From an uncultured Bacillota bacterium (GTDB lineage Bacteria > Bacillota > DTU025 > MWDF01), in the NCBI GenBank assembly GCA_963823655.1, contig CAWGMK010000006.1, forward strand, positions 128,001-192,000: 64,000 bases of DNA, written 5' to 3'. The notes under the pieces are model-generated. The model was not told where the DNA came from and ran no database searches. It saw nothing but the letters and a program-made list of their open reading frames with translations. Both the position numbers and the translations under genes were made by a program. This document shows positions 54,014-56,854 of the stretch, piece by piece. The first letter of the stretch is position 1; every line of letters begins with the position of its first letter.

Positions 54014-55096
54014 ATGAAAATATGGCGTACTCCATTGGTTTCGCTTCTTCTAATCTTCGCAATGTCCGCATCGGCCTTTTGCTCGAATGGCATGAAGCCA
54101 GAAGACTCGTTAACTTTGCCCTGGATTATCTTTGAGGCCTTGAATTTGCCCTTTAGCCAACCGCCGGTGGGCAATGCGGGCAAGCAACAAGATATACGCG
54201 TTCTCATTATCGAGGATTTTGAAGGGAGGTTGCTTACAGAAGCGACTTGGGATGGCTCTGCGCCTCGTGTGTCAGCGGGTGGCAAGGAGTGGGCTTTTAA
54301 ACTTTCCGCGCTGTTAGAAGGACGTCAAGTCGAGTATGAGCTTTGCATCAGTATCGAGGACAAGGCGAAATTACCTGGAGGTTCCGCCGTCCTTACCTTA
54401 AAAGACCTGAGCGGACTTGAGCTTGGCTCAAGCTTTACGCATGTTTTGAATTTGCATGGATTTGAAGGTCTTGCTTCGGATGACGGCAGGTCGGCGGCGC
54501 TCTCGCCAAATGGGGCTCAATCAAACGGGCTTTCCCAATTCATTGCAATGGTTGCTCGGATGGGAACGTGCCTTTTCCGGTTTGAGCAGGCCGGAGGGAT
54601 GGATGAGGAGCCGAGCATTATCATCGCCGAATCCGAAAACAAAGTCGGAAAAGGGCGTGATGGCACGGCCTTGATGGAAATCCTCTTCGCTTCGGCACAA
54701 TCCTGGGCTCCGGGACATGTATTAGATTTTGCAAACGCCATTGATGGGGGAGAAAGAAAGCCTGACATAAGGGTCCTGGGAGTCTCGGACAAGGCGGCAG
54801 TTAACCCAGGAGAGGCCATTGGGTATACTTACTTCCTTTTCAACGCCGGAACAGGAAGCGCGGTTGATGTTGAGTTCACTATCCCGATCTCGGCTGAAGT
54901 CCAGCTGATTCCTGCATCCCTTAGCTGCAGCAAGGGAGAGCTGAAGCTTATCCAGCAGGAGTACGGTATCCCGGGGTCGGGAAGCATTGAAGAGGCGAAA
55001 GGTGCCGGCTATGAGGAGAGGACCATTAGGCTGCTGCTTACCGAAGAAATCATCCCGGGCGAAGCGATATATATCGAATTTGAAGTCTCAGTATGA
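54014..55096 (+). CDS. Secreted protein with a C-terminal DUF11-like domain
   Basis: Signal peptide, then SDKAAVNPGEAIGYTYFLFNAGTGSA.DV...IPGE...IEFEVSV*. Confidence 0.8.
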   Translation: MKIWRTPLVSLLLIFAMSASAFCSNGMKPEDSLTLPWIIFEALNLPFSQPPVGNAGKQQDIRVLIIEDFEGRLLTEATWDGSAPRVSAGGKEWAFKLSALLEGRQVEYELCISIEDKAKLPGGSAVLTLKDLSGLELGSSFTHVLNLHGFEGLASDDGRSAALSPNGAQSNGLSQFIAMVARMGTCLFRFEQAGGMDEEPSIIIAESENKVGKGRDGTALMEILFASAQSWAPGHVLDFANAIDGGERKPDIRVLGVSDKAAVNPGEAIGYTYFLFNAGTGSAVDVEFTIPISAEVQLIPASLSCSKGELKLIQQEYGIPGSGSIEEAKGAGYEERTIRLLLTEEIIPGEAIYIEFEVSV

Positions 55097-55111
55097 TAGG
55101 AGGTTATCATT

Positions 55112-56854
55112 TTGTATAAGAAGCTTATTAGGACCTATTTGCTCGCTTTGATAATTGTCGGCATAGCAGCCGCGGCCGCCAACGCATCGGGGACATTAGC
55201 AGGTACAATGATAAGAAACAGCGCTACAGTAAGCTACAAGGACGCGAATAGCAACCCGATGACGTCCGTAACATCCAATGAAGTGATTACCGAGGTGGAC
55301 AGTGTGTTCGGCGTCGATATTTCGCCGAACGGATACCCTGTTGCCGGATTCAGCGAGAGCAAGACAAGGGATTTCGTGTTTACCGTAACAAATACTGGAA
55401 ATGACCTGGACATGTTTGCCCTTGCTGTTACAGGAATCCCCGCCGGTTGGGGCGCTGTCATATACCACGATGCCGATGGCGATGGCATCTTGGATGCCGG
55501 CGAGCCGACTACTAGCAATACAGGCTCCCTTGATCCTAACCCTCCCACATTGCCTGCCTCTACCAATTACGAATACTTCATAATAGTACGGGTCACGGCT
55601 CCCGCGGCGCCTGTGGTAGTAAACAATATTGCGACTTTTACGCTTACTGCAATATCGGCGGGGTCGGCTTCCGTTACTGATACAGCAAGCTTCAGCATGG
55701 AAGTAGAACAGGCGGAAATCGCAGTATCAAAGACGGCGGAACTTGCAAACCCGATGCCCCTGGAGCCTTTCGACTATACGATTTCTGTTACCAATTCGGG
55801 GACTGTTCAGGCATATGATGTAGTAGTGAGCGACGTTCTCCCAAGCGGTATTTCATTTAGAGGTCCGGTGCTGTACGACGCCGATGGGGCGGGGGCACTG
55901 TTCTCACCAGTCATTTTAGCTGGTGCTTACTCCATGGGCACGGTAACAGTGAACATCGGCAGCCTTGGAGCTGGGATTACGGCTACGATTTCGTTTGAAG
56001 CTGAAGTGACCGCCGAAATTCCTGCCGGGACCGGCATTCTTAACTCTGCCGGCGTAACGTATGACGACTGGAATGATTATCATTTCATCTCAGCAAATTC
56101 CAGCACCGTGACAGTAAAAATCCGCGGCGGCGTCAATATTGAAAGCAGCCGCAATGCATATGTCGATCCGGGGGACGTGCTGCAAATCCCATTCACCATT
56201 GAGAACACCGGCAACGGAACCGATGACATGATAATTTCCGCAACGCACAATGATTGTAATCTCAGCCTTACTTGGACTATCCTTTGGGACTCTGATGAGG
56301 ACGGCACATATGAAACTACAGTGGGTACCACCTCAGGTTCGGATAACATGGTAGGGAATACCGGACCCATCGCAAAAGATGATGTTTACAGTTATGTCGC
56401 AACGGCCAGTATTCCGGTGGGAACCGCCGACACCCTGTTCAACAAGGTTGTCATTTGGGCCAGCAGCACAAAGGGCCCTATACCTTTTATGTCAGACGGC
56501 ATAACTTTGATAAATACTGTGAAGTCGCCTACGCTAACGCTAGTCAAGCAGGTTGATAAGCAGAACTCTGTTCCTGGCGAGATCCTAACTTATACGTTGA
56601 CTGTCACGAATACCGGGACTGGAGATGCCTTAACGGTCCTTATACAAGATAGTATCGACCTGATGAAGGATTCTATAGACTTTATAGCAAGTTCGATAAG
56701 GGTTGATAACGTGCCTCAGACCGATGCCCTGGATTCCGATTATGCGGATTTCGCTGCCAATGTGGTAACAGTCAGAATTCCTCAGATCGGCGGGACTCTC
56801 ACACTACCGCTGAAGACCTCATACGTGATAACTTTCCAGGTAAGGGTAAAATAG
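55112..56854 (+). CDS. Secreted multi-Ig DUF11 protein with isopeptide-forming motifs
   Basis: Signal peptide, two DUF11 domains (VSKTA...YTISVTNSG...VSDVLP and LVKQVDK...PGEILTYTLTVTNTG...IQD), two further Ig domains and DxDxDG loops. Confidence 0.88.
   Translation: MYKKLIRTYLLALIIVGIAAAAANASGTLAGTMIRNSATVSYKDANSNPMTSVTSNEVITEVDSVFGVDISPNGYPVAGFSESKTRDFVFTVTNTGNDLDMFALAVTGIPAGWGAVIYHDADGDGILDAGEPTTSNTGSLDPNPPTLPASTNYEYFIIVRVTAPAAPVVVNNIATFTLTAISAGSASVTDTASFSMEVEQAEIAVSKTAELANPMPLEPFDYTISVTNSGTVQAYDVVVSDVLPSGISFRGPVLYDADGAGALFSPVILAGAYSMGTVTVNIGSLGAGITATISFEAEVTAEIPAGTGILNSAGVTYDDWNDYHFISANSSTVTVKIRGGVNIESSRNAYVDPGDVLQIPFTIENTGNGTDDMIISATHNDCNLSLTWTILWDSDEDGTYETTVGTTSGSDNMVGNTGPIAKDDVYSYVATASIPVGTADTLFNKVVIWASSTKGPIPFMSDGITLINTVKSPTLTLVKQVDKQNSVPGEILTYTLTVTNTGTGDALTVLIQDSIDLMKDSIDFIASSIRVDNVPQTDALDSDYADFAANVVTVRIPQIGGTLTLPLKTSYVITFQVRVK

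Follow-up and report, generated by a model that had tools for sequence, protein, structure and literature searches.

How does a secreted protein become complete when the last of its immunoglobulin (Ig)-like domains is encoded without its final two strands, and when a likeness of these strands opens its mature N-terminus? Two adjacent genes at positions 54014 to 56854 of a 64,000-nucleotide stretch of contig CAWGMK010000006.1 (assembly GCA_963823655.1), from an uncultured Bacillota bacterium, raise this question; the whole stretch is referred to as the window, and coordinates are those of the window unless another contig or locus is named. A sequence-only reading had proposed that the second of these genes encodes the subunit of an isopeptide-crosslinked filament that assembles by donor-strand complementation. 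Following this proposal up computationally, we suggest, with a probability of roughly 0.65, that this gene, here gene 3, encodes the repeating subunit of a head-to-tail, self-ligating extracellular fibre that is built without a sortase or a chaperone-usher machine. Genes are numbered by their order in a second, four-gene copy of the system in the same genome.

54014-55096, plus strand: gene 2, an open reading frame (ORF) of 360 amino acids (aa) with an ATG start, encoding a secreted acceptor-only protein that lacks an N-terminal donor hairpin (ORF list; family alignment A3, six members)
55112-56854, plus strand: gene 3, an ORF of 580 aa with a TTG start and a TAG stop, encoding the putative major subunit, which carries both donor and acceptor

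The two ORFs are spaced by 15 nucleotides. Both of them, and every residue and motif that the earlier reading had named (K207, D241, N311, K479, D513, N36 and the VITFQVRVK end in gene 3; VLGVSD and FTIPI, beginning at residues 254 and 288, in gene 2), were confirmed by script. The gene 3 product comprises an export signal, a hairpin and four domains:

55112-55186, plus strand: signal peptide, residues 1-25, with cleavage after A-N-A inferred by reading the sequence
55190-55297, plus strand: donor β-hairpin, residues 27-62, with Asn36 at 55217-55219
55298-55702, plus strand: domain 1, residues ~63-197, Ig-like, with a TNTGN motif and a DxDxDG-like loop (AlphaFold2 strand pattern, alignment)
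55703-56119, plus strand: domain 2, residues 198-336, a complete CnaA-like DUF11/CLIPPER domain with K207, D241 and N311 (Pfam, NCBIfam and structure matches)
56120-56512, plus strand: domain 3, residues ~337-467, Ig-like, with motifs in common with domain 1 (alignment, AlphaFold2 model)
56513-56851, plus strand: domain 4, residues 468-580, an open CLIPPER acceptor with K479 at 56546-56548 and D513 at 56648-56650; its last two strands are missing
56852-56854, plus strand: TAG stop, read by script

DUF11 domains were recently renamed CLIPPER domains, and an intramolecular Lys-Asp-Asn isopeptide bond has been shown in them (PMC12617251). Domain 2 matches Pfam DUF11 (PF01345) from end to end (residues 203-335, profile positions 2-114 of 114; 63.2 bits for the whole protein against a cut-off of 24.6). 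NCBIfam places TIGR04226, an isopeptide-forming fimbrial domain, at residues 218-318 (46.2 bits for the whole protein, cut-off 30) and gives the protein 77.6 bits for TIGR01451. The predicted model of domain 2 resembles a BcpA pilin domain (Z 13.8) and the CLIPPER structure 9ifr (Z 11.9, root-mean-square deviation (rmsd) 2.9, 115 residues aligned to the 123-residue chain), of which it spans residues 18-140, and K207, D241 and N311 are candidates for an intramolecular isopeptide bond. Domain 4, by contrast, receives N-terminal partial Pfam matches alone in the region 472-540 (DUF7507 positions 1-44 of 105, DUF7927 2-66 of 132, CARDB 2-38 of 101). The distinction drawn earlier between a complete internal DUF11 domain and a last one that lacks its Asn strand is thus borne out, and the spacing from Lys to Asp is 34 residues in both. 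Domain 1 gave no Pfam match above the cut-off, and a search of Protein Data Bank (PDB) sequences with the 580-aa protein returned three matches, all with E > 0.08 and none meaningful.

The strands that domain 4 lacks have a counterpart at the other end of the protein. In BLASTP comparisons, residues 470-513 align with the start of domain 2 (198-241, E 3e-6), placing K479 on K207 and D513 on D241, and residues 30-58 align with the last two strands of domain 2 (305-333, 48% identity, E 2e-5), placing N36 on N311. The near copy of the Asn strand reported at the mature N-terminus is therefore real in its homology to the end of domain 2; the donor, by contrast, is a two-strand hairpin (~27-62) and not the single strand described. 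Its first strand holds Asn36 in the motif I-x-N-x-A-x-x-x-Y, and its second strand carries S55-N56. Thus, the triad lies within one contiguous domain in domain 2 and does not in domain 4, where the chain ends before the Asn strand. Because domain 4 stops there while keeping K479 and D513, it represents a split variant of the CLIPPER family, and the gene 3 product is a CLIPPER/DUF11 superfamily member whose second triad is no longer in one domain. By alignment, no linker separates the hairpin from domain 1, and this junction resembles the normal junction between domains 2 and 3. The signal peptide ends in A-N-A followed by Ser, with no lipobox Cys, and the protein itself ends in TSYVITFQVRVK directly before the stop, with no sorting signal.

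These split ends are conserved. In an alignment of 25 full-length homologs (A1; 530-607 aa, 26-81% identity), the same C-terminal end column is shared by 25/25, and a misread stop codon, which the earlier reading had kept in mind, is thereby excluded. The hairpin opens the mature chain in all 25, beginning 1-2 residues past an AxA-like site, and T28, G31, T32 and I34 are invariant. The K/D/N triad is complete in 20 of the 25, and in two others (P0024 and P0034) N, K and D have all been lost together, as expected if three residues at opposite chain ends act together. Hidden Markov models (HMMs) of the hairpin and of domain 4 were then run on 120 listed homologs; they were built from A1, and 25 of their matches are accordingly matches by construction. 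The hairpin lies within the first 110 residues in 107/120, and among these 107 an Asn stands at the N36 position in 104 and the domain-4 model reaches to four or fewer residues from the C-terminus in 92. Twelve of the 120 have neither the hairpin nor the domain-4 end, and one, P0105 (526 aa), is acceptor-only and keeps both Lys and Asp. The same two ends recur in homologs of two (327-338 aa), four or about seven domains (~875 aa).

One relative, P0239 (2130 aa), appears from its sequence to show the undivided state of domain 4. It opens with the hairpin and four-domain module known from gene 3, and its domain-4 equivalent (466-568, E 2e-9) runs on in cis through a stretch in which I/V-x-N-x-A and S-N motifs are discernible by eye, followed by a long adhesin body. 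BLASTP with the hairpin did not report this stretch, and P0239 has no phmmer match at E ≤ 10 to the barrel-like module described below. P0239 is, with P0001 and P0010, one of the useful matches among the 150 listed from a search of 1.84 billion representative proteins with the A1 profile, which was swamped by giant DUF11-repeat proteins.

Which acceptor does the hairpin choose? Using ESMFold2, we predicted the complex of a mature chain (27-580) with a second copy of domain 4 (468-580), in which the chain's own domain 4 served as a competitor; the sequence folded was that of P0001, which differs from the window protein at residues 242 and 469. In three of three runs the hairpin entered domain 4 of the second copy and not its own, as the sequence-only reading had anticipated, with an ipSAE of 0.83 in each run against 0.00 for the best of three controls. 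The mark applied is reached by 58 of 80 solved complexes and by 2 of 110 mismatched pairs, and is a rough guide here, where our own alignment was used. The runs agreed in at least 97% of contacts, and the predicted local distance difference test score (pLDDT) of the partner was at least 92. The predicted interface joins residues 27-65 of chain 1 (27-28, 32, 34-45, 47, 50 and 53-65) to residues 471-522, 552, 559 and 579-580 of chain 2. In this model, strand 1 of the hairpin pairs with the strand that bears D513 and strand 2 with the strand that bears K479. A38 touches both K479 and D513 and lies on the same strand face as N36; from these contacts, and from the homology of N36 to N311, N36 would come to lie near K479 and D513.

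The protein encoded immediately upstream is also open at its C-terminal end:

54107-54757, plus strand: N-terminal domain of gene 2, residues ~32-248, a β-sandwich in the AlphaFold2 model
54758-55093, plus strand: C-terminal open CLIPPER-like domain of gene 2, residues ~249-360, with Gly256 in place of Lys and Ile290 in place of Asp, ending before the Asn strand

The AlphaFold2 model of gene 2 has a pLDDT of 72 and a predicted template modelling score (pTM) of 0.74. Its C-terminal domain aligns to residues 18-108 only of 9ifr (Z 8.9, 90 residues aligned), and the counterpart of the last strands is missing; the DUF11 match is below the Pfam cut-off (12.2 bits), and NCBIfam TIGR01451 scores 26 bits against a cut-off of 24. 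The hairpin HMM has no match in the protein. That its open DUF11 domain lacks Lys and Asp had been noted before, and G256 and I290 prove to be invariant in 6/6 members of its family (A3). This invariance indicates that the family lacks the residues for the bond by conservation and not through decay, and at the level of sequence it fits a deliberately non-covalent cap. The N-terminal domain resembles N-terminal or galactose-mutarotase-like domains of glycoside hydrolases, with 5wzn_A as the best match (Z 11.0, a moderate score; rmsd 3.8, 183 residues aligned), and on this modelled likeness it may be a glycan-binding head. An Atlas search with this domain gave no usable match. A word-based search with gene 2 found two proteins; the family diverges too fast for this tool.

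If the subunit is completed by strands from another molecule, its relatives might be accompanied by proteins that only give or only receive. The neighbourhoods of homologs, which the earlier reading had singled out for a survey, do contain such partners. A locus search with the eight closest sequences (A2) gave seven loci; of the four inspected, L009, L010 and L011 are true relatives, and L013 was rejected as an unrelated CARDB/DUF11 protein. In all three relatives, acceptor-only genes lie 5' of the subunit gene. The product of gene 1 (475-612 aa) combines a large N-terminal domain with a C-terminal CLIPPER domain that is open and retains both Lys and Asp. That of gene 2 (365-372 aa), a homolog of the 360-aa protein of the window, has neither residue. 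A second locus of the L009 organism, L035, holds an intact gene 2-gene 3-gene 4 operon, in which gene 4 encodes a 2171-aa donor-only protein: a signal peptide, a donor hairpin with Asn, a stalk of Big_1/Invasin_D3, CarboxypepD_reg, SpaA, DUF11 and SdrD_B domains, and a 761-aa C-terminal module that ends in Phe. Acceptor-only and donor-only proteins encoded in the same operons can be completed only in trans. The operon of P0002 and P0270, like that of the window, appears to hold only subunit and cap genes.

The C-terminal module of gene 4 (~760 aa) looks, by sequence, like an outer-membrane barrel. The L035 module has no Pfam match of its own; among 12 aligned members, seven weakly match PF13505 (OMP_b-brl; best E 0.0012), and other weak matches include the outer-membrane barrel families YfaZ, YaiO and Porin_4. 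A PDB profile search with the module returned one match, which was not meaningful (E 0.44), and a word-based search found one protein, this family also diverging too fast for the tool.

In a six-frame scan of the host genome, the N-terminal hairpin occurs in only three ORFs, namely gene 3, a frameshifted paralog on contig C10 and a gene 4 homolog on the same contig. The latter two belong to the second copy of the system (G000:C10:117894-128000; positions 7874-18001 of locus L026), with genes 1, 2, 3 and 4 in that order. In the assembly, gene 1 of this copy is split over three frames, the gene 3 paralog has many stops and gene 4 is broken into three ORFs; gene 2 (373 aa) alone is intact. In contigs of related strains (four runs from two studies), a single base of the assembly is absent at each of L026 ~16262, ~16581 and ~16956. 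These differences agree with the frame changes that separate the three gene 4 fragments, and this candidate anchor gene may be intact in nature. The same comparison gave no cover over most of L026 7800-12200, where the gene 1, gene 2 and gene 3 paralogs lie. Beside this copy, L026 2721-7445 (G000:C10:112720-117444) is a 1574-aa ORF with five DUF7507 repeats, DUF11 and SdrD_B, ending in MFKF; its C-terminal module of ~750 aa is barrel-like and 55% identical to the post-gene-4 one. No donor hairpin was found in this ORF, and the ORFs upstream of it look like fragments of the same giant gene. An Atlas search with its module returned clusters of hypothetical proteins at the top, and a cluster bearing Porin_4 at rank 18 (score 0.92) offers a lead.

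The logic of the locus extends to a sister family whose members are ~875 aa long. All 13 of 13 sequences of this group have N44, K768 and D820, and a metagenome scan with the group returned at least 524 relatives, of which the best 80 loci were kept for classing of ORFs. These 80 loci contain 70 donor-plus-acceptor ORFs, 40 donor-only ORFs, mostly of 1.5-2.1 thousand aa, and 26 acceptor-only ORFs of about 0.8-1.4 thousand aa. Where at least 5 kb lay downstream of the subunit gene, the locus included an ORF ending in a ~750-aa homolog of the gene 4 module in 33 of 35 cases (E down to 1.6e-29). The hairpin was recognised by HMM in 20 of the 39 ORFs with this module, and in many of the others a diverged motif resembling the hairpin can be discerned past the signal peptide, by eye and with no rigorous count; several of these lack the Asn. 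In L039-L043, L057 and L065, for example, the N-terminus of the giant protein encoded downstream is hairpin-like but has another residue in place of the Asn, again by eye; such proteins are possibly non-covalent donors that mirror the gene 2 acceptor. Source names in this family include Pseudomonadota, Armatimonadota, Thermus and Verrucomicrobiota. From the class counts in the best 80 loci, the division into subunit, anchor-like donor and cap-like acceptor is conserved far beyond the organism of the window.

Together, the stop shared across the family, the homology of the two ends, the docking prediction, the orphan partners and the invariance of gene 2 lend computational support to donor-strand completion in trans as first proposed. 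We suggest the following sequence of events. Export by the Sec pathway and cleavage of the signal peptide would free the N-terminal two-strand hairpin (27-62), which would enter the C-terminal CLIPPER/DUF11 domain (468-580) of another subunit, encoded without its last two strands. Insertion would complete the CnaA-like Ig fold and bring Asn36 beside Lys479 and Asp513, and an autocatalytic Lys-Asn isopeptide bond would then lock the joint, as it does within single CLIPPER domains. Repeated head to tail, this step would yield a beads-on-a-string fibre that is built like the stalk of a giant DUF11 adhesin but held together by isopeptide bonds where the stalk has peptide bonds. At one end, the free N-terminal hairpin would be capped non-covalently by gene 2, presenting its possible glycan-binding head, or alternatively and covalently by gene 1. 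At the other, the open acceptor would be plugged by the hairpin of the giant donor-only gene 4 product, probably anchored in the outer membrane. This last step would also set the polarity of the fibre on the cell.

Three other explanations have to be weighed. The first is a modular adhesin of fixed length, in which a single gene 3 product receives the hairpin of the gene 4 anchor in its domain 4 and gives its own hairpin to the acceptor of a gene 1 or gene 2 cap, making a three-piece assembly in the style of a Tag/Catcher pair. It would account for the conservation of donor-only and acceptor-only partners beside the subunit gene, and no measurement shows more than one copy of gene 3 per assembly. 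Yet the hairpin of gene 3 docks confidently into domain 4 of gene 3 itself. A single adaptor would also seem needless, given that the anchor's hairpin and the cap's acceptor come from the same donor and acceptor families, and two operons, that of the window and that of P0002 and P0270, appear to hold only subunit and cap genes. We consider this explanation unlikely.

The second is completion in cis, whereby the hairpin folds into domain 4 of its own chain, perhaps with an isopeptide bond, to give a cyclised and very stable four-domain monomer at the surface or in the periplasm. Domains that are nested or discontinuous are found in pilus proteins of Gram-positive bacteria, RrgA among them. The covariation of N36 with K479 and D513 fits closure in cis equally well, and the strands of the hairpin reach a pLDDT of about 80 in the AlphaFold2 monomer. 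The same monomer model (overall pLDDT 76), however, has a pTM of only 0.44 and gives no sign of a confidently closed ring, and the competing domain 4 of the same chain was passed over in every docking run. The linker-free junction between hairpin and domain 1, so like that between domains 2 and 3, also speaks against closure, and the orphan acceptors and donors that share these operons could find no partner within their own chain. We had also considered that cis closure might be sterically impossible in the two-domain relatives (P0040, P0042, P0077 and P0079), and dropped this argument, since antiparallel domains could close. A cis-closed monomer is thus disfavoured, and we hold it to be distinctly improbable as the explanation of the locus.

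The third, that there is no strand exchange and that the N-terminal segment is part of domain 1 and the last domain a complete minimal Ig domain of a small DUF11 adhesin or envelope protein, with the likeness of motifs a relic of repeat ancestry, could appeal to the extreme abundance of DUF11-type repeats (83381 proteins matched by the A1 profile) and to the DUF11 domains without isopeptide residues mentioned in PMC12617251, but is very improbable in view of the exact C-terminal end in 25/25 homologs and the invariant mature N-terminus, the joint loss of three residues in two homologs, an open domain in gene 2 that covers only 9ifr 18-108, docking that passed its controls, and a donor/acceptor class logic that holds across the best 80 loci.

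Several points weigh against the self-ligating fibre itself. All of the evidence is computational, and the structural statements rest on predictions. Self-polymerisation of gene 3 is not separated by these data from a single copy held between anchor and cap. In the docking model, the explicit N36-K479 pair, which the sequence-only reading had expected, is not among the 25 lowest-error contacts listed. The docking pass may partly reflect likeness to, or memory of, solved single-chain CnaA-like domains such as 9IFR, which the completed domain resembles, and a free single-domain partner favours a solution in trans; conversely, the pLDDT of the hairpin in the monomer may mean that AlphaFold2 docks it in cis. 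The lock is not universal, as Glu replaces Lys in P0004 and P0005, and Ala replaces Asn in P0013. The subunit gene is also rare in the phylum of the host: at E ≤ 1e-30 it was found in 3 of 401 sampled genomes, including that of the window, all of one genus. The candidate anchor gene lies outside the window and is interrupted in the assembly. Finally, the genome encodes BamA (E 8e-40), and the host is therefore diderm; no path by which the subunit would pass its outer membrane was identified.

The surroundings of the two genes bear on how they are expressed and on which assembly machines are at hand:

53624-53650 and 53838-53859 (53624-53859), plus strand: two terminator-like hairpins between the He_PIG gene and the gene 2-gene 3 operon, pattern matches alone
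55098-55103, plus strand: ribosome-binding site AGGAGG, 8 nucleotides 5' of the TTG of gene 3, read by script
49653-50009: ORF of an IS3-type transposase helper (HTH_28/HTH_Tnp_1)
50454-51962, minus strand: 502-aa Cthe_2159 carbohydrate-binding protein (E 2e-80), a candidate surface protein adjoining the operon
52693-53601, plus strand: 302-aa He_PIG Ig-domain protein with a C-terminal tail that is very acidic and then lysine-rich, a candidate surface protein
56992-57874, minus strand: xylose-isomerase-like TIM-barrel gene (PF01261), apparently two overlapping ORFs of 181 and 161 aa
60278-62881, plus strand: 867-aa protein, apparently unrelated to the fibre genes, with weak P-loop matches (HerA/DUF87/TrwB-type) close to the N-terminus

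With terminator-like hairpins 5' of gene 2, genes 2 and 3 probably form a two-gene operon; such patterns were matched 3 times against 5.5 expected in shuffled sequence. The statement that no LPXTG motif, sortase, usher or chaperone is nearby proved correct at the C-terminus of gene 3 and in the flanking genes. Among 14 flanking ORFs scanned between 46443 and 62881 there was no Pfam match to a sortase, and no signal peptidase gene was seen among the scanned neighbours. Across the genome, which is 97% complete, neither an usher (PF00577) nor a PapD chaperone (PF00345) was matched, while positive controls were, and the sole sortase-like match is weak (28.9 bits) and on another contig (C10:88164-88526). 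The GC content is 0.46-0.48 between 42000 and 54000 against 0.53-0.59 across the first 42 kb, and the surface-protein genes of the window may lie on an acquired island. The apparent split of the PF01261 gene reflects a frameshift or else an indel introduced in assembly.

Among the main routes to tough extracellular fibres are donor-strand exchange and autocatalytic isopeptide bonds, and their combination has been reported for an archaeal thread and for clostridial BsaA, on two distinct folds. If the proposed fibre exists, nature has split the widespread CLIPPER/DUF11 domain across subunits, as engineers did for tools of the SpyTag/SpyCatcher type, and bacteria with an outer membrane have a new pilus-like pathway in which subunits, caps and anchors form recognisable classes, with members numbering in the hundreds in metagenomes of soil and wastewater. 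Many proteins whose annotation goes no further than "DUF11 domain-containing" or "beta strand repeat-containing" would be explained. The fibre would also offer natural orthogonal hairpin/acceptor pairs for ligation, including matched non-covalent versions, and would pose a sharp question as to how subunits, folded or unfolded, pass the outer membrane. More tentatively, and as a possibility to which we would give less than even odds, the locus may belong to a widespread and so far unrecognised class of diderm surface fibres. Its subunit would be a natural Tag/Catcher, a CLIPPER domain split between the ends of one protein, whose extracellular assembly needs no enzyme, chaperone or energy. The ~760-aa barrel of the giant donor-only protein would be both anchor and export pore, and interchangeable acceptor-only adhesins would sit at the end, some welded through Lys and Asp and some held non-covalently like gene 2. 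The same logic would then run from a wastewater-associated, Bacillota-related lineage to the ~875-aa family.

A polymer of CLIPPER/DUF11 domains joined by a donor hairpin was not found in the literature searched, which left out most subscription journals, and an earlier description is possible. The self-ligating split-CLIPPER fibre thus seems to be a design not yet described for this family, and there is a real chance that the locus defines a new pilus class. The described CLIPPER domains, including PDB 9IFR, share with the gene 3 product the CnaA-like Ig fold and the Lys/Asp/Asn triad, and domain 2 is an ordinary member of the family; in their description (PMC12617251), the triad lies in one chain segment and stabilises a stalk, and the term "donor strand" does not occur. 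In the last domain of gene 3, by contrast, Lys and Asp are C-terminal, and the strand with Asn is N-terminal and apparently belongs to another molecule.

Donor-strand exchange outside the classical chaperone-usher pathway is known from the Enterococcus faecalis Elr (WxL) pilus, which likewise has tip and base subunits in one operon; according to that report (bioRxiv 10.64898/2026.10.17.759780), it differs in its WxL fold, its membrane-anchored chaperone ElrE, its anchoring by sortase, its non-covalent joints and its confinement to Bacillota. Type V pili of Bacteroidia differ in that the precursor is a lipoprotein with a lipobox Cys and exchange is triggered by a protease, whereas the signal peptide of gene 3 has no such Cys. 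In chaperone-usher pili (FimA, FimH, PapA), each subunit has an incomplete Ig fold that the following subunit makes whole with its N-terminal extension, as summarised in PMC9715654. Their tip adhesin is an acceptor without a donor that carries a binding head, as genes 1 and 2 would be, and an outer-membrane protein stands at the base. These pili exchange one strand, non-covalently, and depend on an usher and a PapD-like chaperone. Our prediction reproduces the principle, but on a CnaA-like fold, with two strands and with no sequence relation.

The thread of Sulfolobus acidocaldarius (Saci_0406) is assembled head to tail by donor-strand complementation through N-terminal tails, without a known machine, with proposed intermolecular isopeptide bonds and with a neighbouring gene, Saci_0405, as a proposed cap (PMC9715654). 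On the description given there, it is set apart from gene 3 by its archaeal origin, its fold like that of type 1 pilins and the lack of a Lys-Asp-Asn triad; its bond runs from the N-terminal α-amine of Asp24 to Asn57, from subunit n to n+2. Another analogy in mechanism is BsaA, a Sec-exported subunit whose N-terminal segment enters the β-sheet of the next one in an "exchange and lock" (PMC11580942). A spontaneous Asn-Lys isopeptide bond forms there with the help of an acidic catalyst (N35, K74, E56); the triad is present in a subset of the family, and paralogs without it exist (PMC11580942). As in the proposed fibre, where N36 would meet K479 and D513, the Asn is in the donor and the Lys and acid are in the acceptor. 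The likeness is one of mechanism only. BsaA is a single domain of the TasA/camelysin-like fold, unrelated to the CnaA-like Ig fold, and donates a disordered strand, whereas gene 3 encodes a multi-domain rod that donates a two-strand hairpin. BsaA is also associated with genes for SipW and type IV pili, and its host is a monoderm. The gene 3 product has no TasA-family match in Pfam, and TIGR04089 (exp_by_SipW_III) scores 12.3 bits against a cut-off of 60 (E 0.14).

The sortase-assembled pilins (BcpA, RrgB, SpaD) provide the best structural matches to domain 2 and share with the proposed fibre CnaA/CnaB domains with internal isopeptide bonds and covalently joined subunits. Their joints, however, are made by a sortase, between the threonine of LPXTG and the lysine of a pilin motif, and the gene 3 product has no sorting signal, its 25 aligned homologs ending in like manner. 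In SpyTag/SpyCatcher, SnoopTag and DogTag, a CnaB- or CnaA-type domain is cut into a strand or hairpin and a remainder, which form an isopeptide bond in trans. Those pairs are laboratory constructs, whereas the split in the 580-aa protein is apparently natural, lies at the two ends of one protein and would, as we propose, drive its polymerisation.

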